Translations under genes and position numbers: made by a program
In this document: positions 3,489-14,297 of the stretch, piece by piece
Layout of the letters: every line of letters starts with the position of its first letter
Position numbering within the stretch: position 1 is the first letter of the stretch
Source of the DNA: Escherichia phage humlepung
Strand: one strand, 5' to 3'
Length of the DNA: 64,000 bases
Sequence record: MN850564.1
The notes under the pieces: generated by a model
What the model saw: only the letters and a program-made list of their open reading frames with translations
The model's database searches: none
Told to the model about the DNA's origin: nothing

Positions 3489-4070
3489 TCAAGAGTATTT
3501 TTTAGGCAGCAATGCACTGCGCTTGTTACTCTCTTCACTCAATAGTGCAATGAAGTCATCACTTTTACCTTTCCACGGGCTGAATGAAGGGATATGTTCA
3601 CGGATAGCCTCGATAACCGTCTTAAGTGCCGTGTTCTTCATCCACCAATCAGAATCTGCTGATGCCACCACGTAGTATCCACCGTCATCAGTTAAAATTG
3701 GCTCTGAAATACATGGTGAAATCAAAGTGGTGATGATTGAACCGTTGTTCATGTAATATGTGCGCTTCATAACCTTTTCAAGAAGCTTGTGAAGGTCACC
3801 AAACAGTGTTACTAGTTCTTTGTGGTCAATATCTTTTTCGAGGTTTGCTCGATACTTCAATAGTGCAGCATCAACCTCTCTGTCATTGAACTTGAAATAT
3901 TGAACCTCTTCAACAAGGCAAACACTGATATTGTTGACATTCATAGTCAACTTGCAAACTTTTACAGGAGAGTTGATATTTGGTTGAAAAAGTGCAATAC
4001 AACCTTCAATATTTCCAAAATGTTGGACTAATGTTACTTGTGGAGTAATATTCTGTTGCTCTTCGGACAT
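3489..4070 (-). CDS. hypothetical protein (193 aa)
   Basis: ORF in operon. Confidence 0.5.
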   Translation of the reverse strand: MSEEQQNITPQVTLVQHFGNIEGCIALFQPNINSPVKVCKLTMNVNNISVCLVEEVQYFKFNDREVDAALLKYRANLEKDIDHKELVTLFGDLHKLLEKVMKRTYYMNNGSIITTLISPCISEPILTDDGGYYVVASADSDWWMKNTALKTVIEAIREHIPSFSPWKGKSDDFIALLSEESNKRSALLPKKYS

Positions 4071-8967: not shown

Positions 8968-10383
8968 ATGAGCGAATTATTTAAACATGCGCACCTTCAT
9001 GCAGGTCGAACTGAAAATGGTGCTGTAAACCATACTTCATCAATGTCTGCTCTTGTAGACTTTTACAAAGCTGCTGGTTCGAGCCGTAGCAATGTAGAAA
9101 TCTTACCAGACCTGTTCTACAAAGCTTTGCGTGAGGATGTTGATGTTGCAGTTCGTATTTTACTGCATATGCGAGATGTACGAGAAGGTATGGGTGAGCG
9201 TAAAGCTTTCCGAACTGTTTTACTTAAAGCAATTGAAGATAAGATTTTAGAACCTACACAGGTTCTTCGCATTATGGATAAGATTGCAGAACTTGGTCGT
9301 TTTGATGACTTCAAAATCTTCGTAGGTACTCGTTTTGAGACAGATGCCTTCAAACATTTAGAAGCAGCATTACTAGACCCTGCAACAGCAGGTTTGGCGG
9401 CTAAGTGGTTACCACGAGTCAAACCACGTCATAAGCAGTTTGTAAAACGTTTCTGCAAGTTTGCCAACTTGAGTGAGAAAGAGTACCGCACACTGTTGTC
9501 TGCACTATCTGATACAGTTGAGCAAAAAATCTCTGCTAATGAGTTTGGTAAGATTGACTACAGTAAGATTCCTTCACTTGCTGCTGCACGTTACCAAAAA
9601 CTGTTTAACCGTAAAGATGGAGAGCGTTACAAAGCTTACATCGAGTCCTTATCAAAAGGTGAGACTAAGATTAACGCTGGTGCTGTTTACCCATACGATG
9701 TGATTAAATCTGTCAAGTATGGTAATGCAGATGTTGCTAATGAGCAGTGGAAAGCACTACCAAACTGGATGGCAGAAGGTGAAAACATCTTGTGTATGTC
9801 TGATGTATCAAGTTCAATGTCTTGGGTGAATTTTGGCTCCATTACTGCTCTGGATATTGGTGTATCACTTGCCTTGTATGTAGCAGAACGCAATACAGGT
9901 TGCTTTAAGAATGAGTTAATGGTTTATTCAACAAACCCTCACTTCATCGAACTGAGTGGTGATTTACGAAACCGTCATCGTCAGGTGATGCGACACGTTG
10001 AATATGGCTCAACTAACTTACAAGCAGCTTTTGACCGCATTCTTGAAACAGGTAAAAGAAACAACTTGACTCAGAAAGATATGCCAAGTAAGCTTATCAT
10101 CTTCTCCGATATGGAGTTCAATCAGGTTGATGGAGCTAACGGTCGTACAAACTTTGAAGCAATTCAGAGTAAGTACAAAAAAGCTGGATATGAGATGCCA
10201 CAACTGGTATTCTGGTACTTAGCAAACCGTAATGGTACTTGCGAAGTATCTGTTAAGGATAACGGTGTAGCAATGGTATCAGGGTTCTCTCCAGCCACTT
10301 TAAAAGCTCTGCTTGGTGGTGAGAAGTTTGACCCAATCAGTGTAATGCTCAAAGCAGTAATGATTGACCGTTATATCTGGTAA
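8968..10383 (+). CDS. Ro60/TROVE-like protein with C-terminal von Willebrand factor A domain (DUF2828-like N-terminus by recollection)
   Basis: MIDAS-like DVSSSMS...T...IIFSDMEFN resembling Ro60 vWA (DVSASM / FTDCETN); N-terminal TENGA...S..ALVDFY motif. Confidence 0.6.
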   Translation: MSELFKHAHLHAGRTENGAVNHTSSMSALVDFYKAAGSSRSNVEILPDLFYKALREDVDVAVRILLHMRDVREGMGERKAFRTVLLKAIEDKILEPTQVLRIMDKIAELGRFDDFKIFVGTRFETDAFKHLEAALLDPATAGLAAKWLPRVKPRHKQFVKRFCKFANLSEKEYRTLLSALSDTVEQKISANEFGKIDYSKIPSLAAARYQKLFNRKDGERYKAYIESLSKGETKINAGAVYPYDVIKSVKYGNADVANEQWKALPNWMAEGENILCMSDVSSSMSWVNFGSITALDIGVSLALYVAERNTGCFKNELMVYSTNPHFIELSGDLRNRHRQVMRHVEYGSTNLQAAFDRILETGKRNNLTQKDMPSKLIIFSDMEFNQVDGANGRTNFEAIQSKYKKAGYEMPQLVFWYLANRNGTCEVSVKDNGVAMVSGFSPATLKALLGGEKFDPISVMLKAVMIDRYIW

Positions 10384-10402
10384 AAAGTTTTAAAAAGGGT
10401 AT

Positions 10403-10431
10403 TGACAATGTGTTTAATACCCTTTAATATG
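10403..10431 (+). promoter_or_regulatory. Sigma70-like promoter TTGACA-17-TAATAT inside inverted repeat AAGGGTATT/AATACCCTT
   Basis: Exact -35 consensus, 17-nt spacer, TAATAT -10; upstream of tRNA array. Confidence 0.6.
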
Positions 10432-10548
10432 TTCTACATAGAAGCGAAATGAGAGCTTTTCTAAGATACTGAAAAATATTTTAAAAAAGTTCTTGACAAC
10501 CACTAAAAAATAATGTTAAAGTGGTTACATAGAGTTTGAAAAGTTTAT

Positions 10549-10710: not shown

Positions 10711-10715
10711 GTTTT

Positions 10716-10791
10716 GACAGAAGACCAATTACAGCAAACTTAATCTTATTCATCTGAAGGTAAATCGGACAAAGAAGAGATTTGGTCTGGT
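10716..10791 (+). repeat. Structured repeat element copy a (5' GACAGAAGACCA ... 3' TGGTCTGGTC)
   Basis: Member of four-copy family with conserved CAGAAGACC...TACAGCAA...GGTCTGG and covarying flanks. Confidence 0.5.
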
Positions 10792-10801
10792 CATTAAGAA
10801 T

Positions 10802-11133: not shown

Positions 11134-11210
11134 GGCTATGTAGTTTAACTGGAGAAAATACTCCCCTGTCACGGGAGATGATGTGAGTTCAAGTCTCATC
11201 GTAGCCGCCA
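11134..11210 (+). tRNA. tRNA-Asp (anticodon GTC)
   Basis: Acceptor ggctatg/cgtagcc, loop ctGTCac, T-loop TTCAAGT, CCA. Confidence 0.7.
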
Positions 11211-11237
11211 ATTTTGAGAGGGCTATTTAGCCCCTCC

Positions 11238-11272
11238 CTTAAAGAGTTCTTACGAGTATTCTTTAAGGGAGC
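11238..11272 (+). repeat. Hairpin CCCTTAAAG-(agTTCTTACGAGtatt)-CTTTAAGGG
   Basis: 9-bp perfect stem; loop motif TTCTTACGAG recurs at 14277-14286. Confidence 0.5.
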
Positions 11273-11348
11273 AGAAGACCAAATACAGCAAGAATGTATG
11301 AAATTTCAAGCCAATTTAATTTTGAAAATTTAAAACTTGGTCTGGCTC
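11269..11348 (+). repeat. Structured repeat element copy c (5' GAGCAGAAGACCAA ... 3' TTGGTCTGGCTC)
   Basis: Same family; flank covariation GAGC/GCTC. Confidence 0.5.
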
Positions 11349-11354
11349 AACAAA

Positions 11355-11493
11355 TTTACAGAAGGCCGTTTACAGCAAAACTTAAACAATCTATTTCTCC
11401 GGTAAAGAAAAGGCGAAGGTTCGATTCCTTCACTCGGCAGATGTCGAGTTGGTGTAATGGTAGCACTTAAGATGATAAACAACGGTCTGGTAA
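11355..11493 (+). ncRNA. Candidate structured ncRNA (element copy d): terminal stem TTACAGAAGGCCGTT/AACGGTCTGGTAA enclosing tRNA-like T-arm and D-arm hairpins
   Basis: Internal gaagg-TTCGATT-ccttc hairpin with T-loop consensus, acceptor-like hairpin, D-arm-like gtgtAATGGTAgcac; no complete tRNA fold. Confidence 0.3.
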
Positions 11494-11639
11494 TTACCTT
11501 TGTAGATAAGTTATTAAGCTTACTTGTGAGTATGCGACCACAAAGGGTGAATGGGTAAATTCTAGATTTAAACCCAAAAAGGCACATCGCTACAGACCTT
11601 AAGCAAGTCTGGGTAGCTTATCTACAAAGATAATTTAAT

Positions 11640-11715
11640 GGAAGTGTAGCAGAATGGTGATGCGGCAGACTTTTAATCTGACAGGCGATGGGTTCGAATC
11701 CCTCCACTTCTACCA
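11640..11715 (+). tRNA. tRNA-Lys (anticodon TTT)
   Basis: Acceptor ggaagtg/cacttct, loop cTTTTaa, T-loop TTCGAAT, CCA. Confidence 0.65.
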
Positions 11716-11888: not shown

Positions 11889-11917
11889 TTGACATTGAGA
11901 TGTGACTACTTTATAGT
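11889..11917 (+). promoter_or_regulatory. Sigma70-like promoter TTGACA-17-TATAGT inside the tRNA region
   Basis: Exact -35, 17-nt spacer, TATAGT -10. Confidence 0.55.
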
Positions 11918-12121
11918 AACCTTAGTTTTCGTTGCGTAGCGTCTATTTTGCAAATTTAAAATAAATGCAAACGACAATGTTTTTCTGGCAGTAGCTTGAT
12001 AGGCTAAACACCAGTGAGGTCTTCCAATCCCTCATCAAAGAATTTGGCGTACTCGCCCACGGTATGATTAATAAGGTGGGCATCTTTAAGGGCTTTCTAA
12101 GAGAGTCTTTAAAGATAATTA

Positions 12122-12203
12122 CGGGGCGTATCTCAGCGGTCTTCTAAACCGCCGTTAACCGAGTAAGTGGAGTATGCGGGTTCGAGTCCTGCCGCCTCGA
12201 CCA
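12122..12203 (+). tRNA. Atypical tRNA-like gene, anticodon stem-loop gcggt-cTTCTaa-accgc (TCT, Arg-like), no recognisable D-arm, 23-nt extra segment
   Basis: 7-bp acceptor cggggcg/cgcctcg, T-arm gcggg-TTCGAGT-cctgc, CCA; only 7 nt between acceptor and anticodon stem. Confidence 0.4.
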
Positions 12204-12346: not shown

Positions 12347-12429
12347 ATGGGACGATATTAAGACTCTAAGGCATGAGCAACGGCTTCCAACACCGTTTCA
12401 AAGGGGTTCAACTCCTCCGTCCCATGCCA
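12347..12429 (+). tRNA. Atypical tRNA-like gene, anticodon loop compatible with CCA (Trp) closed by a C-A pair, or 9-nt loop
   Basis: Perfect acceptor atgggac/gtcccat plus CCA, T-loop TTCAACT; D-region irregular. Confidence 0.35.
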
Positions 12430-12530: not shown

Positions 12531-12787
12531 CCTAATAAGATTTAAAGCCAAGCTTCATTCGGATGTTGCTTTGGTATACCGCGTGTATTGTTGTACGCAC
12601 TGATAAAGCACCTAGTAGGTGTCACGGAGAAGAGATAATATCAAGCTCTCCAAAGGTTCTAGTCACCGGATTAAACAAGACTATGCAAAGACCTTTTTAG
12701 GTCTTTTTAGAGGGCTTCTAAGGTTATTACAGCTTGTTGTGGAACCTTGTTGCTTAGGTTCTTAGAAGTTCTCTAAAAAGATTTAAT

Positions 12788-14266: not shown

Positions 14267-14267
14267 C

Positions 14268-14294
14268 TTCTAAGGATTCTTACGAGAGTCCTTA
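14268..14294 (+). repeat. Hairpin with loop motif TTCTTACGAG (second copy)
   Basis: aaggaTTCTTACGAGagtcctt; motif shared with 11250-11259. Confidence 0.45.
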
Positions 14295-14297
14295 AAT

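Follow-up and report, generated by a model that had tools for sequence, protein, structure and literature searches.

Element d and its locus

In a window of 64,000 nucleotides (nt) of Escherichia phage humlepung (MN850564.1), the window being the whole stretch of DNA that was analysed, we have characterised element d, a 138-nt RNA element on the + strand of a tRNA gene array. Element d is a circularly permuted tRNA cloverleaf enclosed by a conserved terminal stem, and it is accompanied by three siblings (elements a-c) and by an upstream gene whose product is modelled with a Ro60 fold. By analogy with bacterial Y RNAs, we consider it probable that d is a Y-RNA-like tRNA mimic that works, together with its siblings, as the partner of this Ro60-like protein. 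The array comprises 24 tRNA genes, all on the + strand between about 10.5 and 15.4 kilobases (kb) according to ARAGORN, and one further tRNA found by Rfam only; CCA is encoded in 22 of the 24. Its region is 97.7% identical to that of Escherichia phage allfine, and likewise for more than 200 other Felix O1-like phages (Felixounavirus, Ounavirinae). Element d lies in the gap between tRNA-Asp (11134-11210) and tRNA-Lys (11640-11715), and its parts are as follows.

11356-11493, +: element d, 138-nt RNA with a closing module and a permuted tRNA-like domain (folding, orthologues; self-match to model R1, 163 bits)
11356-11378, +: 5' half of the closing module, from the P0 5' strand to the single-stranded UACAGCAA
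11356-11359 with 11490-11493, +: P0, TTAC/GTAA (UUAC/GUAA in the RNA; RNAfold, 14 orthologues)
11360-11362 and 11489, +: internal loop, AGA on the 5' side and a single G on the 3' side
11363-11370 with 11481-11488, +: P1, AGGCCGTT/AACGGTCT in the DNA; RNA strands AGGCCGUU (5', 11363-11370) and AACGGUCU (3', 11481-11488) (RNAfold, orthologues)
11371-11378, +: conserved single-stranded UACAGCAA, enriched beside homologous genes
11394-11410, +: anticodon-arm-like hairpin UUUCU-CCGGUAA-AGAAA (RNAfold, Rfam tRNA alignment, de-permutation)
11411-11431, +: variable-loop equivalent AGGC (4 nt), then the T arm GAAGG-UUCGAUU-CCUUC (11415-11431)
11432-11449, +: acceptor-like helix of 7 base pairs (bp), ACUCGGC/GUCGAGU, with the closing loop AGAU and without CCA
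11450-11466, +: equivalents of U8 and G9, then the D arm GUGU-AAUGGUA-GCAC (11452-11466)
11481-11493, +: 3' half of the closing module (P1 3' strand, G, P0 3' strand)

An earlier note, made from the letters of the window, had described T-arm, acceptor-like and D-arm hairpins inside a terminal stem. All three hairpins are present in the sequence, and minimum-free-energy folding with RNAfold, a check which that note had proposed, recovers them together with the terminal stem (11356-11370 with 11481-11493) and the anticodon-like hairpin. The D arm contains the equivalents of A14, G18, G19 and A21. The note also held that no complete cloverleaf with an anticodon arm could be drawn; here it had overlooked the arm at 11394-11410. 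When the 5' half (acceptor 5' strand, D arm and position 26) is joined to the 3' half (anticodon-like arm through the discriminator), ARAGORN calls a normal cloverleaf, tRNA-Thr(ggt); for the native order no standard tRNA is called, including with the pseudogene and intron options (-ps, -i). The mimicry is thus complete rather than partial, as had been supposed. Element d is a complete circularly permuted cloverleaf that is opened between positions 26 and 27, where the chain between the D arm and the anticodon-like arm joins the closing module, and its acceptor ends are bridged by a 4-nt loop. The 3' half is encoded upstream of the 5' half, and rejoining yields the full cloverleaf in d and its orthologues. 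Because the mimicry amounts to a full permuted cloverleaf, the permuted tRNA that the note had offered as an alternative proved right in terms of structure.

In the Rfam tRNA model, 11382-11432 corresponds in canonical order to positions 7-64; the match has 22 bits, which is below the gathering score of 29 bits. The ARAGORN call of the de-permuted sequence persists in 81 of 200 controls in which the anticodon-arm segment was shuffled, and the call therefore gives weak support for the arm itself and no proof. In Rfam scans of a-d at gathering and permissive thresholds, no Y RNA, transfer-messenger RNA, ribozyme or other family was found, and the matches were limited to the weak tRNA fragment and a chance similarity of a and b to 'Dicty Class I'. 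For self-cleaving ribozyme cores, group I permuted intron-exon arrangements and bulge-helix-bulge splice sites, neither the Rfam scans nor the conserved sequences gave a pointer, no dedicated search having been made. An inner stem, P2 (CUUAA/UUAAG), that appeared in the RNAfold structure was dropped, as it is 85% paired and shows no real covariation among the orthologues.

Conservation and covariation

Elements a-d occur at equal positions in the genomes of Felixounavirus, Suspvirus and Mooglevirus. We examined 14 distinct d orthologues (alignment A2) against controls in which the pairing partners were slid and against 500 shuffles. Standard pairs made up 96.3% of the pair cells (41-48% when slid), compensatory double changes were found at 15 pairs (1-5 in the controls), and none of the 500 shuffles reached the observed pairing or covariation values. 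P0 and P1 are 100% paired, which bears out the terminal stem of the earlier note, and the T-arm segment is 98.6% paired. The acceptor-like helix is also 100% paired; both sides changed in six of its seven pairs, and all seven are compensated across lineages. Its variants include ACACG/CGUGU (SUSP2, Sf14), ACCCUUC/GAAGGGU (Mordin) and CGCUCCC/GGGAGUG (L008, as CGCUCCC-A-CCA...GGGAGUG), and the closing loop differs in each variant (AGAU, UUACGG, GCCAAACA, ACCAACUA). The D arm is invariant in Ounavirinae, and covaries and is 100% paired across lineages. The weakest helix is the anticodon-like arm, with 86% pairing among the orthologues and 75% across lineages.

In a cross-lineage alignment, which was fitted to the covariance model described below and hence leans towards the structure, 94.2% of the cells pair, compared with 38-45% for slid partners; compensation is seen at 29 of 33 pairs, and covariation scores 0.48, with at most 0.08 in controls. 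All eight P1 pairs covary there, and the first pairs stay A-U (19 of 22) and G-C (21 of 22). The most conserved feature across phages is the closing module and not the anticodon arm. Element d is kept in genera whose Ro60-like proteins are 56-89% identical to that of the window, and in unrelated phages. The structure first noticed in the window is real and conserved, and we are highly confident that d functions as a structured RNA within this family of elements.

The siblings and the shared closing module

By repeat analysis and a purpose-written extractor, exactly four elements with a P0 of at least 4 bp and a P1 of at least 7 bp were found in the window, all of them in the array. Besides d these are:

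10715-10793, +: element a, without tRNA-like insert; P0 UGAC/GUCA, AGA/G loop, P1 AGACCAA/UUGGUCU, UACAGCAA
10882-10947, +: element b; P0 UUGC/GCAA, P1 AGACCGU/ACGGUCU, UUCAGCAA
11269-11348, +: element c; P0 GAGC/GCUC, P1 AGACCAA/UUGGUCU, UACAGCAA; ends 7 nt before element d

All four are co-oriented in the first part of the array and share a closing module, which consists of a 4-bp P0, an asymmetric loop (5'-AGA facing 3'-G), a P1 of 7-8 bp and the motif. P1 has the form AGACCnn/nnGGUCU, beginning with A-U and G-C, and U(A/U)CAGCAA stands directly after its 5' strand. The sequence of P0 varies and its pairing is always kept; independent RNAfold runs on the four copies gave the same P0 and P1. 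The tRNA-like interior is found in d alone, and a-c enclose no tRNA parts. Model R1 matches element b with 45.1 bits, and element a with 36.4 bits with the interior deleted. Element a begins 4 nt after the CCA of tRNA-Glu and stops 8 nt before tRNA-Met; element b begins 3 nt after tRNA-Met and stops 8 nt before tRNA-Asn. Since these ends lie 3-8 nt from tRNA ends, ordinary tRNA end-processing would be expected to release both a and b.

The neighbouring Ro60-like protein

The proposed partner is encoded just 5' of the RNA elements:

8968-10383, +: gene for a 471-amino-acid (aa) Ro60-like protein with a helical-repeat ring and a vWA domain (assigned by fold)

The protein belongs to Pfam DUF2828 and DUF7788; a phmmer search against PDB sequences gave no match at E<=1, and a literature search on DUF2828 returned nothing relevant. 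Its AlphaFold2 model, built on an alignment of 38 sequences, is confident, with a pLDDT of 89 and a pTM of 0.89. When this model was compared with the PDB by Foldseek, the 12 best matches were all Ro60/TROVE proteins over the full length (E about 1e-8, TM up to 0.69), among them Xenopus and human Ro60, Deinococcus radiodurans Rsr and the Ro60 of Thermus phage phiLo (including 9L5Y and 9KOP), and below these 12 stood isolated vWA domains only. The model shows the helical-repeat ring and C-terminal vWA domain over the full length of the protein, and on this modelled structure the gene encodes a Ro60 fold that is divergent in sequence.

Homologues were found by tblastn in 692 phage records. The phages concerned include KVP40-like vibriophages, phages of Listeria, Staphylococcus, Enterococcus and Campylobacter, and cluster-L-type mycobacteriophages; the mycobacteriophage homologue has 34% identity (E about 1e-77) and is annotated 'Ro-like RNA binding protein'. 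In giant phages, homologues are annotated 'structural protein'. The homologue of Listeria phage CKA15 was found by mass spectrometry in purified virions (PMC12282133), and on this ground the Ro60-like protein may be packaged and injected with the virion.

The same RNA design beside homologous genes in other phages

We examined 69 loci in which the homologous protein is less than 75% identical to that of the window, the close Ounavirinae being excluded. Within 1.2 kb downstream of the gene, ACAGCA[AT] occurs on the gene strand at 0.87 per kb, compared with 0.05 on the opposite strand and about 0.14 far from the gene; upstream of the gene the two strands differ as well (0.52 vs 0.09 per kb). A strict architecture, in which a stem of at least 7 bp ends at most 4 nt before the motif and the partner strand is followed by G, was present at 49 of 97 gene-strand motif sites near the gene and at 18 of 141 controls (Fisher p = 3e-10). 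This test replaced a 'best stem near motif' statistic, which was too permissive to discriminate.

Individual phages show the design clearly. Three elements with the pattern GGACnnn-(n)ACAGCAA...nnnGUCC-AG follow the gene of mycobacteriophage Krypton555, within a gap of 370 nt. Inside the second of the three stand a T arm, an acceptor-like hairpin (7 bp, closed) and a D arm; its fold is exactly that of d (z = -3.5), and it gives a sub-threshold match to Rfam YrlA (38 bits, E 7e-5). In Rumpelstiltskin, the gap that follows the gene likewise contains the stem-ACAGCAA motif three times, once around a T/acceptor/D mimic. Upstream of the gene of Listeria phage cka18, at a distance of 80-390 nt, stem-(U/C)AACAGCAA elements stand three times in tandem behind a promoter-like sequence, TTGACA-17-TATCAT.

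The covariance model was trained on 14 Ounavirinae-type d sequences only, namely 13 from Felixouna-, Susp- and Moogleviruses together with that of L008. It gave full-length matches of 37-70 bits in unrelated phages:

L071: 70 bits, E 4e-14
Rumpelstiltskin (L009): 57 bits, E 1e-10
L034, three elements: 56, 43 and 35 bits
Krypton555 (L010): 43 bits, E 3e-7
L043: 43 bits
L062: 37 bits

All 63 matches at E<=1 lie on the strand of the gene, and true tRNAs did not exceed 24 bits, their matches being local ones to the T arm. The non-Ounavirinae elements by themselves could not be aligned adequately with MAFFT; a model of these was given up, and the test was run in the direction described.

The motif is also found in the leader of the protein's own gene. 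It lies within 80 nt of the start codon in 8 of 60 distinct leaders, compared with 0.7 expected, as a mini stem-ACAGCAA-stem-G hairpin abutting the ribosome-binding site. Such mini-hairpins stand 27-46 nt upstream of the start in L012/L032 (KVP40), L037, L040, L042, L058 and L071. RNA-binding proteins that target the mRNA from which they are made commonly have such a site in its leader, and the finding suggests translational autoregulation by the Ro60-like protein.

Aeromonas phage APT65 (L011) carries an unpermuted form. Directly downstream of its homologous Ro60-like gene, at 3715-3827, lies a 113-nt 'tRNA' that has, in place of the anticodon arm, a hairpin and then C-UACAGCAA. Read around the circle, its parts (acceptor, D arm, [stem + UACAGCAA], T arm) follow one another as they do in d. 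Its ends, however, lie at the acceptor stem, a loop closes the stem that precedes UACAGCAA, and Rfam recognises a 113-nt tRNA. Two 'tRNAs' of 113-114 nt (966-1079 and 3715-3827) flank the gene in this phage; one has its anticodon loop enlarged by an insert of about 45 nt, and the other is the version with the hairpin and UACAGCAA.

In L008 (8950-9087) and L034 (4369-4513), d-like elements have a discriminator and CCA right after the acceptor 3' strand, as CGCUCCC-A-CCA and ACUCCCC-G-CCA respectively, with a linker of 5-15 nt to the 5' strand. By analogy with Mycobacterium smegmatis YrlA, these CCA ends hint that RNase P and 3' end processing may produce a two-piece RNA.

In many metagenomic phage loci, about 60-300 nt downstream of the Ro60-like gene, the first short stem-UUACAGCAA element is directly succeeded by another conserved element, which is much larger (about 230-250 nt) and begins GGAUCG-GUACAGCAAAAAGUAC. 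The larger element, present in L038, L039, L041, L045, L049, L053, L056, L057, L059, L064, L065, L073, L074 and others, appears to be an uncharacterised structured RNA.

Comparison with known systems

In the definition of Chen et al. (2014, PMC4201824), a YrlA RNA carries the Ro60-contact motif GNCGAAN0-1G on the 5' strand, is adjacent to Ro60 and binds it, and has a tRNA-like domain in which V and T are followed by a closed acceptor-like stem and then D. Element d shows this order between the strands of its terminal stem. On the one hand, d and YrlA are alike in that an end-to-end stem encloses a tRNA-like domain, a protein-contact motif (in d, the putative one) stands on the 5' strand, a gene for a ring protein of Ro60 type (for d, by its modelled fold) lies nearby, siblings without the full mimic are common (YrlB), and the acceptor stem has 7 bp in some members. 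On the other hand, the 5' motif of d is A(R)A-AG...UACAGCAA and not GNCGAAN0-1G, the curated model does not match, an extra anticodon-arm-like hairpin completes the cloverleaf, the partner is a DUF2828/DUF7788 protein that is not Pfam TROVE by sequence, and the RNAs are embedded in a tRNA array. Accordingly, the Y-RNA-like reading of the earlier note stands as to the architecture, the neighbour with a Ro60 fold and the co-occurrence in unrelated phages, but not as to membership of the curated YrlA family.

Pairs of Ro60 and Y RNAs are already known in phages, namely in cluster-C mycobacteriophages and Thermus phage phiLo (PMC12135203). The phiLo Ro60 with its Yrl1 and Yrl2 resembles the system described here in having a phage Ro60-fold protein, adjacent stem-bulge-stem RNAs and a proposed role in counter-defence; it differs in that the RNAs carry CGAA and no tRNA-like domain as described, the protein is a recognisable TROVE protein, and binding was shown (PMC12135203). 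In the PhageMaP preprint (2024), gp130 of Bas63 was described as Ro60-like in structure, as countering the Ppl defence and as lying upstream of tRNA genes, and its authors speculated that 'some tRNA genes ... are possibly Y RNAs' (PMC11482910). A study of Listeria phages reported abundant non-coding RNAs upstream of the homologue and made a similar guess on their nature (PMC12282133). Neither the RNAs themselves nor the ACAGCAA module were found to have been identified in the searchable literature, and Rfam 15 has no family for them.

Circularly permuted tRNA genes occur in the alga Cyanidioschyzon merolae and the archaeon Thermofilum pendens. As in d, the 3' half is encoded there before the 5' half, with a short linker across the acceptor ends. 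The algal and archaeal genes, however, mature through a bulge-helix-bulge, a splicing endonuclease and a circular intermediate into functional tRNAs with conserved anticodons, whereas for d no such machinery is known in the host clade, the anticodon varies, CCA is lacking and siblings without tRNA parts exist. The closing stem of d has a 3-nt/1-nt internal loop and not the 3-4-3 bulge-helix-bulge, for which no formal search was made.

Alternative explanations

Considering the permuted cloverleaf, d could be a genuine circularly permuted tRNA gene, whose acceptor loop would be cut (RNase P, 3' trimming, CCA addition) to give a tRNA decoding ACC (Thr), with the pieces joined or held at the closing stem as a functional, possibly two-piece, tRNA. 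This would agree with the de-permuted tRNA-Thr(ggt) call, the 7-bp acceptor helix, the N-CCA of the relatives L008 and L034, and the in vivo finding on M. smegmatis YrlA, whose acceptor stem also has 7 bp, that RNase P cleaves it and CCA is added to it (PMC4201824). GenBank record REP6 also annotates a 131-nt 'tRNA-Thr GGT' here; that call catches the same anticodon-like loop and is not a credible tRNA. However, the anticodon is unconserved among the orthologues (GGU, UAU, GCU, shifted in Mordin), as shown by the loops CCGGUAA (here), CUGGUAA (SUSP2), CUUAUAA (Sf14) and CUGCUAA (L008), and several Felixounaviruses have a 6-nt loop (CGGUAA); position 33 is C and not U in the window. The de-permuted orthologues are called as Thr, a 4-base anticodon, Ile, SeC and Ser. 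Furthermore, d encodes no CCA, compared with 22 of the 24 array tRNAs, its acceptor loop has 4 nt, and a-c share the closing module without any tRNA parts, this module being more conserved than the anticodon arm. To our knowledge, no bacterial pathway for maturing permuted tRNAs has been described. We therefore regard a functional tRNA as very unlikely, and a degenerate one is disfavoured by the same variable anticodon and loop length and missing CCA. Reduction to decayed remnants, that is, the 3' half of one dead tRNA beside the 5' half of the next and without function, is harder still to accept. Tandem tRNA junctions can indeed imitate the T-arm...D-arm order (PMC4201824), and our own scan gave weak matches at junctions; but the acceptor strands of d pair with each other and covary through at least three different sequences, and d is kept across genera (56-89% protein identity) and in unrelated phages.

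The stem modules might instead act in cis to process or punctuate the polycistronic tRNA precursor, for example as stabilising hairpins or as cleavage sites of RNase III or RNase E, and be signals that are unrelated to the Ro60-like protein, d being such a signal with tRNA fragments captured by chance. Elements a-d do lie between tRNA genes on the same strand, a and b just 3-8 nt from tRNA ends, and other palindromic hairpins also punctuate the array. Yet stem-ACAGCAA elements are found with the homologous gene at sites outside any tRNA array (the mycobacteriophage gap, the Listeria phage, the gene's own 5' leader), its single-stranded motif is kept across unrelated phages, which is unexpected for a generic nuclease hairpin, and the tRNA-like interior itself covaries; we judge this explanation unlikely. 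Slightly less credible is a free-standing tRNA decoy that soaks up a tRNA-targeting defence nuclease or another tRNA-binding factor without the Ro60-like protein. Phage tRNA arrays have been linked to the evasion of tRNA-targeting defences, d sits within such an array, and it has an intact elbow (equivalents of G18, G19, T54, Psi55 and C56) with acceptor and anticodon-like arms. A decoy leaves unexplained, however, both the closing module common to siblings that are not tRNA-like and the strand-specific linkage of this module to the Ro60-like gene in many phages, and the variable anticodon loop speaks against one particular tRNA target. The least probable explanation is a coding gene on the minus strand. 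An 85-aa open reading frame (11330-11587) exists, and several records, those of wV8 and AYO145A among them, list it as a hypothetical protein, but it is unconserved: a 1-nt loop deletion leaves 76 aa with a shifted end, L028 has 34 aa, Susp- and Moogleviruses have 44-49 aa at other coordinates, and the substitutions track the RNA pairing and not codons.

Interpretation

We consider a new sequence class of phage Y-RNA-like tRNA mimics, with a divergent Ro60-like partner, to be the best reading of element d. Several results weigh against it. The curated YrlA model of Rfam (RF02553, gathering score 69 bits), with which the earlier note had proposed to examine d, gave no match at E<=10 in scans of 5.2 kb and of 171 nt. 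The 5' strand of d is UUACAGAAGGCCGUUUACAGCAAAAC, without GNCGAA or CGAA, and the conserved motif is UACAGCAA instead. On these grounds, binding to the protein is argued from co-occurrence and analogy only; and since the 'anticodon' is variable as well, d is neither a decoding tRNA nor a YrlA member as presently modelled. The 471-aa protein has no match to Pfam TROVE (PF05731), and its gene is separated from d by about 1 kb that includes tRNAs. With a thermodynamic z-score of just -1.4 for d, the evidence is comparative and not the folding energy by itself. Element d is absent in some relatives (L007, L022) and hence dispensable. The E-values of the covariance model are rough, and the d of L008 was in its training set. 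Moreover, the abundant RNAs of the Listeria phages could not be mapped onto motif-bearing elements, because the published coordinates cover one region that apparently lies elsewhere (PMC12282133).

We infer that a-d are transcribed, processed and bound by the protein, and that d has an effector function. Elements a-d would share a transcript with the tRNAs, from which the ordinary processing of tRNA ends would free them, and the Ro60-like ring protein encoded just 5' of the array would bind their closing module, UACAGCAA included. In d, the tRNA-like domain may then act as an 'effector' module that recruits or occupies a tRNA-recognising factor, for which an exoribonuclease, RNase P, a CCA-adding or modification enzyme and a tRNA-directed defence nuclease are candidates; a parallel is offered by Y RNAs of the YrlA type, through which bacterial Ro60 (Rsr) is tethered to PNPase. 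The ribonucleoprotein may act in counter-defence, as is suggested by the reported action against Ppl of Bas63 gp130, the Ro60-like gene that we equate with the present one by position.

Taken together, a-d might found a large class of phage Y RNAs, built of a stem followed by (U)ACAGCAA, as ligands of a DUF2828-type Ro60 paralogue; we put this forward tentatively, as a possibility of somewhat under even chances. Such a class would extend over about 690 phages that have the protein (Felix O1-like, KVP40-like, Herelleviridae of Listeria, Staphylococcus and Enterococcus, Campylobacter phages and cluster-L mycobacteriophages). It would contain permuted (d) and unpermuted (APT65) tRNA mimics, some with an encoded CCA, and through the same motif the protein would recognise the leader of its own mRNA as well. 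The ribonucleoprotein, which the virion may deliver, would redirect or block host tRNA or RNA processing against defences such as Ppl.

Ro60-Y RNA particles are conserved from bacteria to humans, their functions are only partly understood, and Ro60 is an autoantigen in lupus and Sjogren syndrome. For a Felix O1-like phage, the guess published in 2024 is now replaced by concrete candidates, with four RNAs per genome, one of which is a complete permuted tRNA mimic. The putative recognition module is now defined, is distinct from the canonical GNCGAA, and recurs in the same design beside the same protein family in many unrelated phages. This suggests that a whole RNA family is missing from Rfam. 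At the site of d itself, the annotations as a 131-nt tRNA-Thr and as a minus-strand hypothetical protein are corrected.

Other features of the array

Two sigma-70-like promoter matches stand just 5' of the RNA array, found by consensus only:

10402-10430, +: sigma-70-like promoter match
10493-10522, +: sigma-70-like promoter match

The number of promoter-consensus matches in the region is not above the expectation from shuffles, and these two are accordingly just consistent with co-transcription. On the + strand, no terminator-like site was found between them and 11873, nor any ahead of the array's next promoter-like site at 11889.

Directly 3' of element d, at 11491-11638 (+), lies a 148-nt hairpin with 22-nt inverted termini. 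It is very stable (minimum free energy -44.3 kcal/mol, z = -5.45, with 0 of 200 shuffles as stable), is absent in some Felixounaviruses and has no match in Susp- and Moogleviruses; it could be an insertion resembling a miniature inverted-repeat transposable element (MITE) or another small RNA. The tRNA at 12122-12200 (+) was found by Rfam alone (31.7 bits) and not by ARAGORN, and relatives annotate tRNA-Arg(TCT) at the equivalent site, for which reason the present copy may be atypical or degenerate. A further tRNA-like sequence at 12347-12429 (+), called by neither ARAGORN nor Rfam, has the acceptor strands ATGGGAC/GTCCCAT, a T arm GGGG-TTCAACT-CCTCC and a 3' G-CCA, without a recognisable D arm. 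Palindromic hairpins of the CTTTAAGGG.../...CCCTTAAAG type punctuate the array at 11234-11271, 12082-12116, 12697-12786 and 14267-14296, and may be processing sites or terminators.

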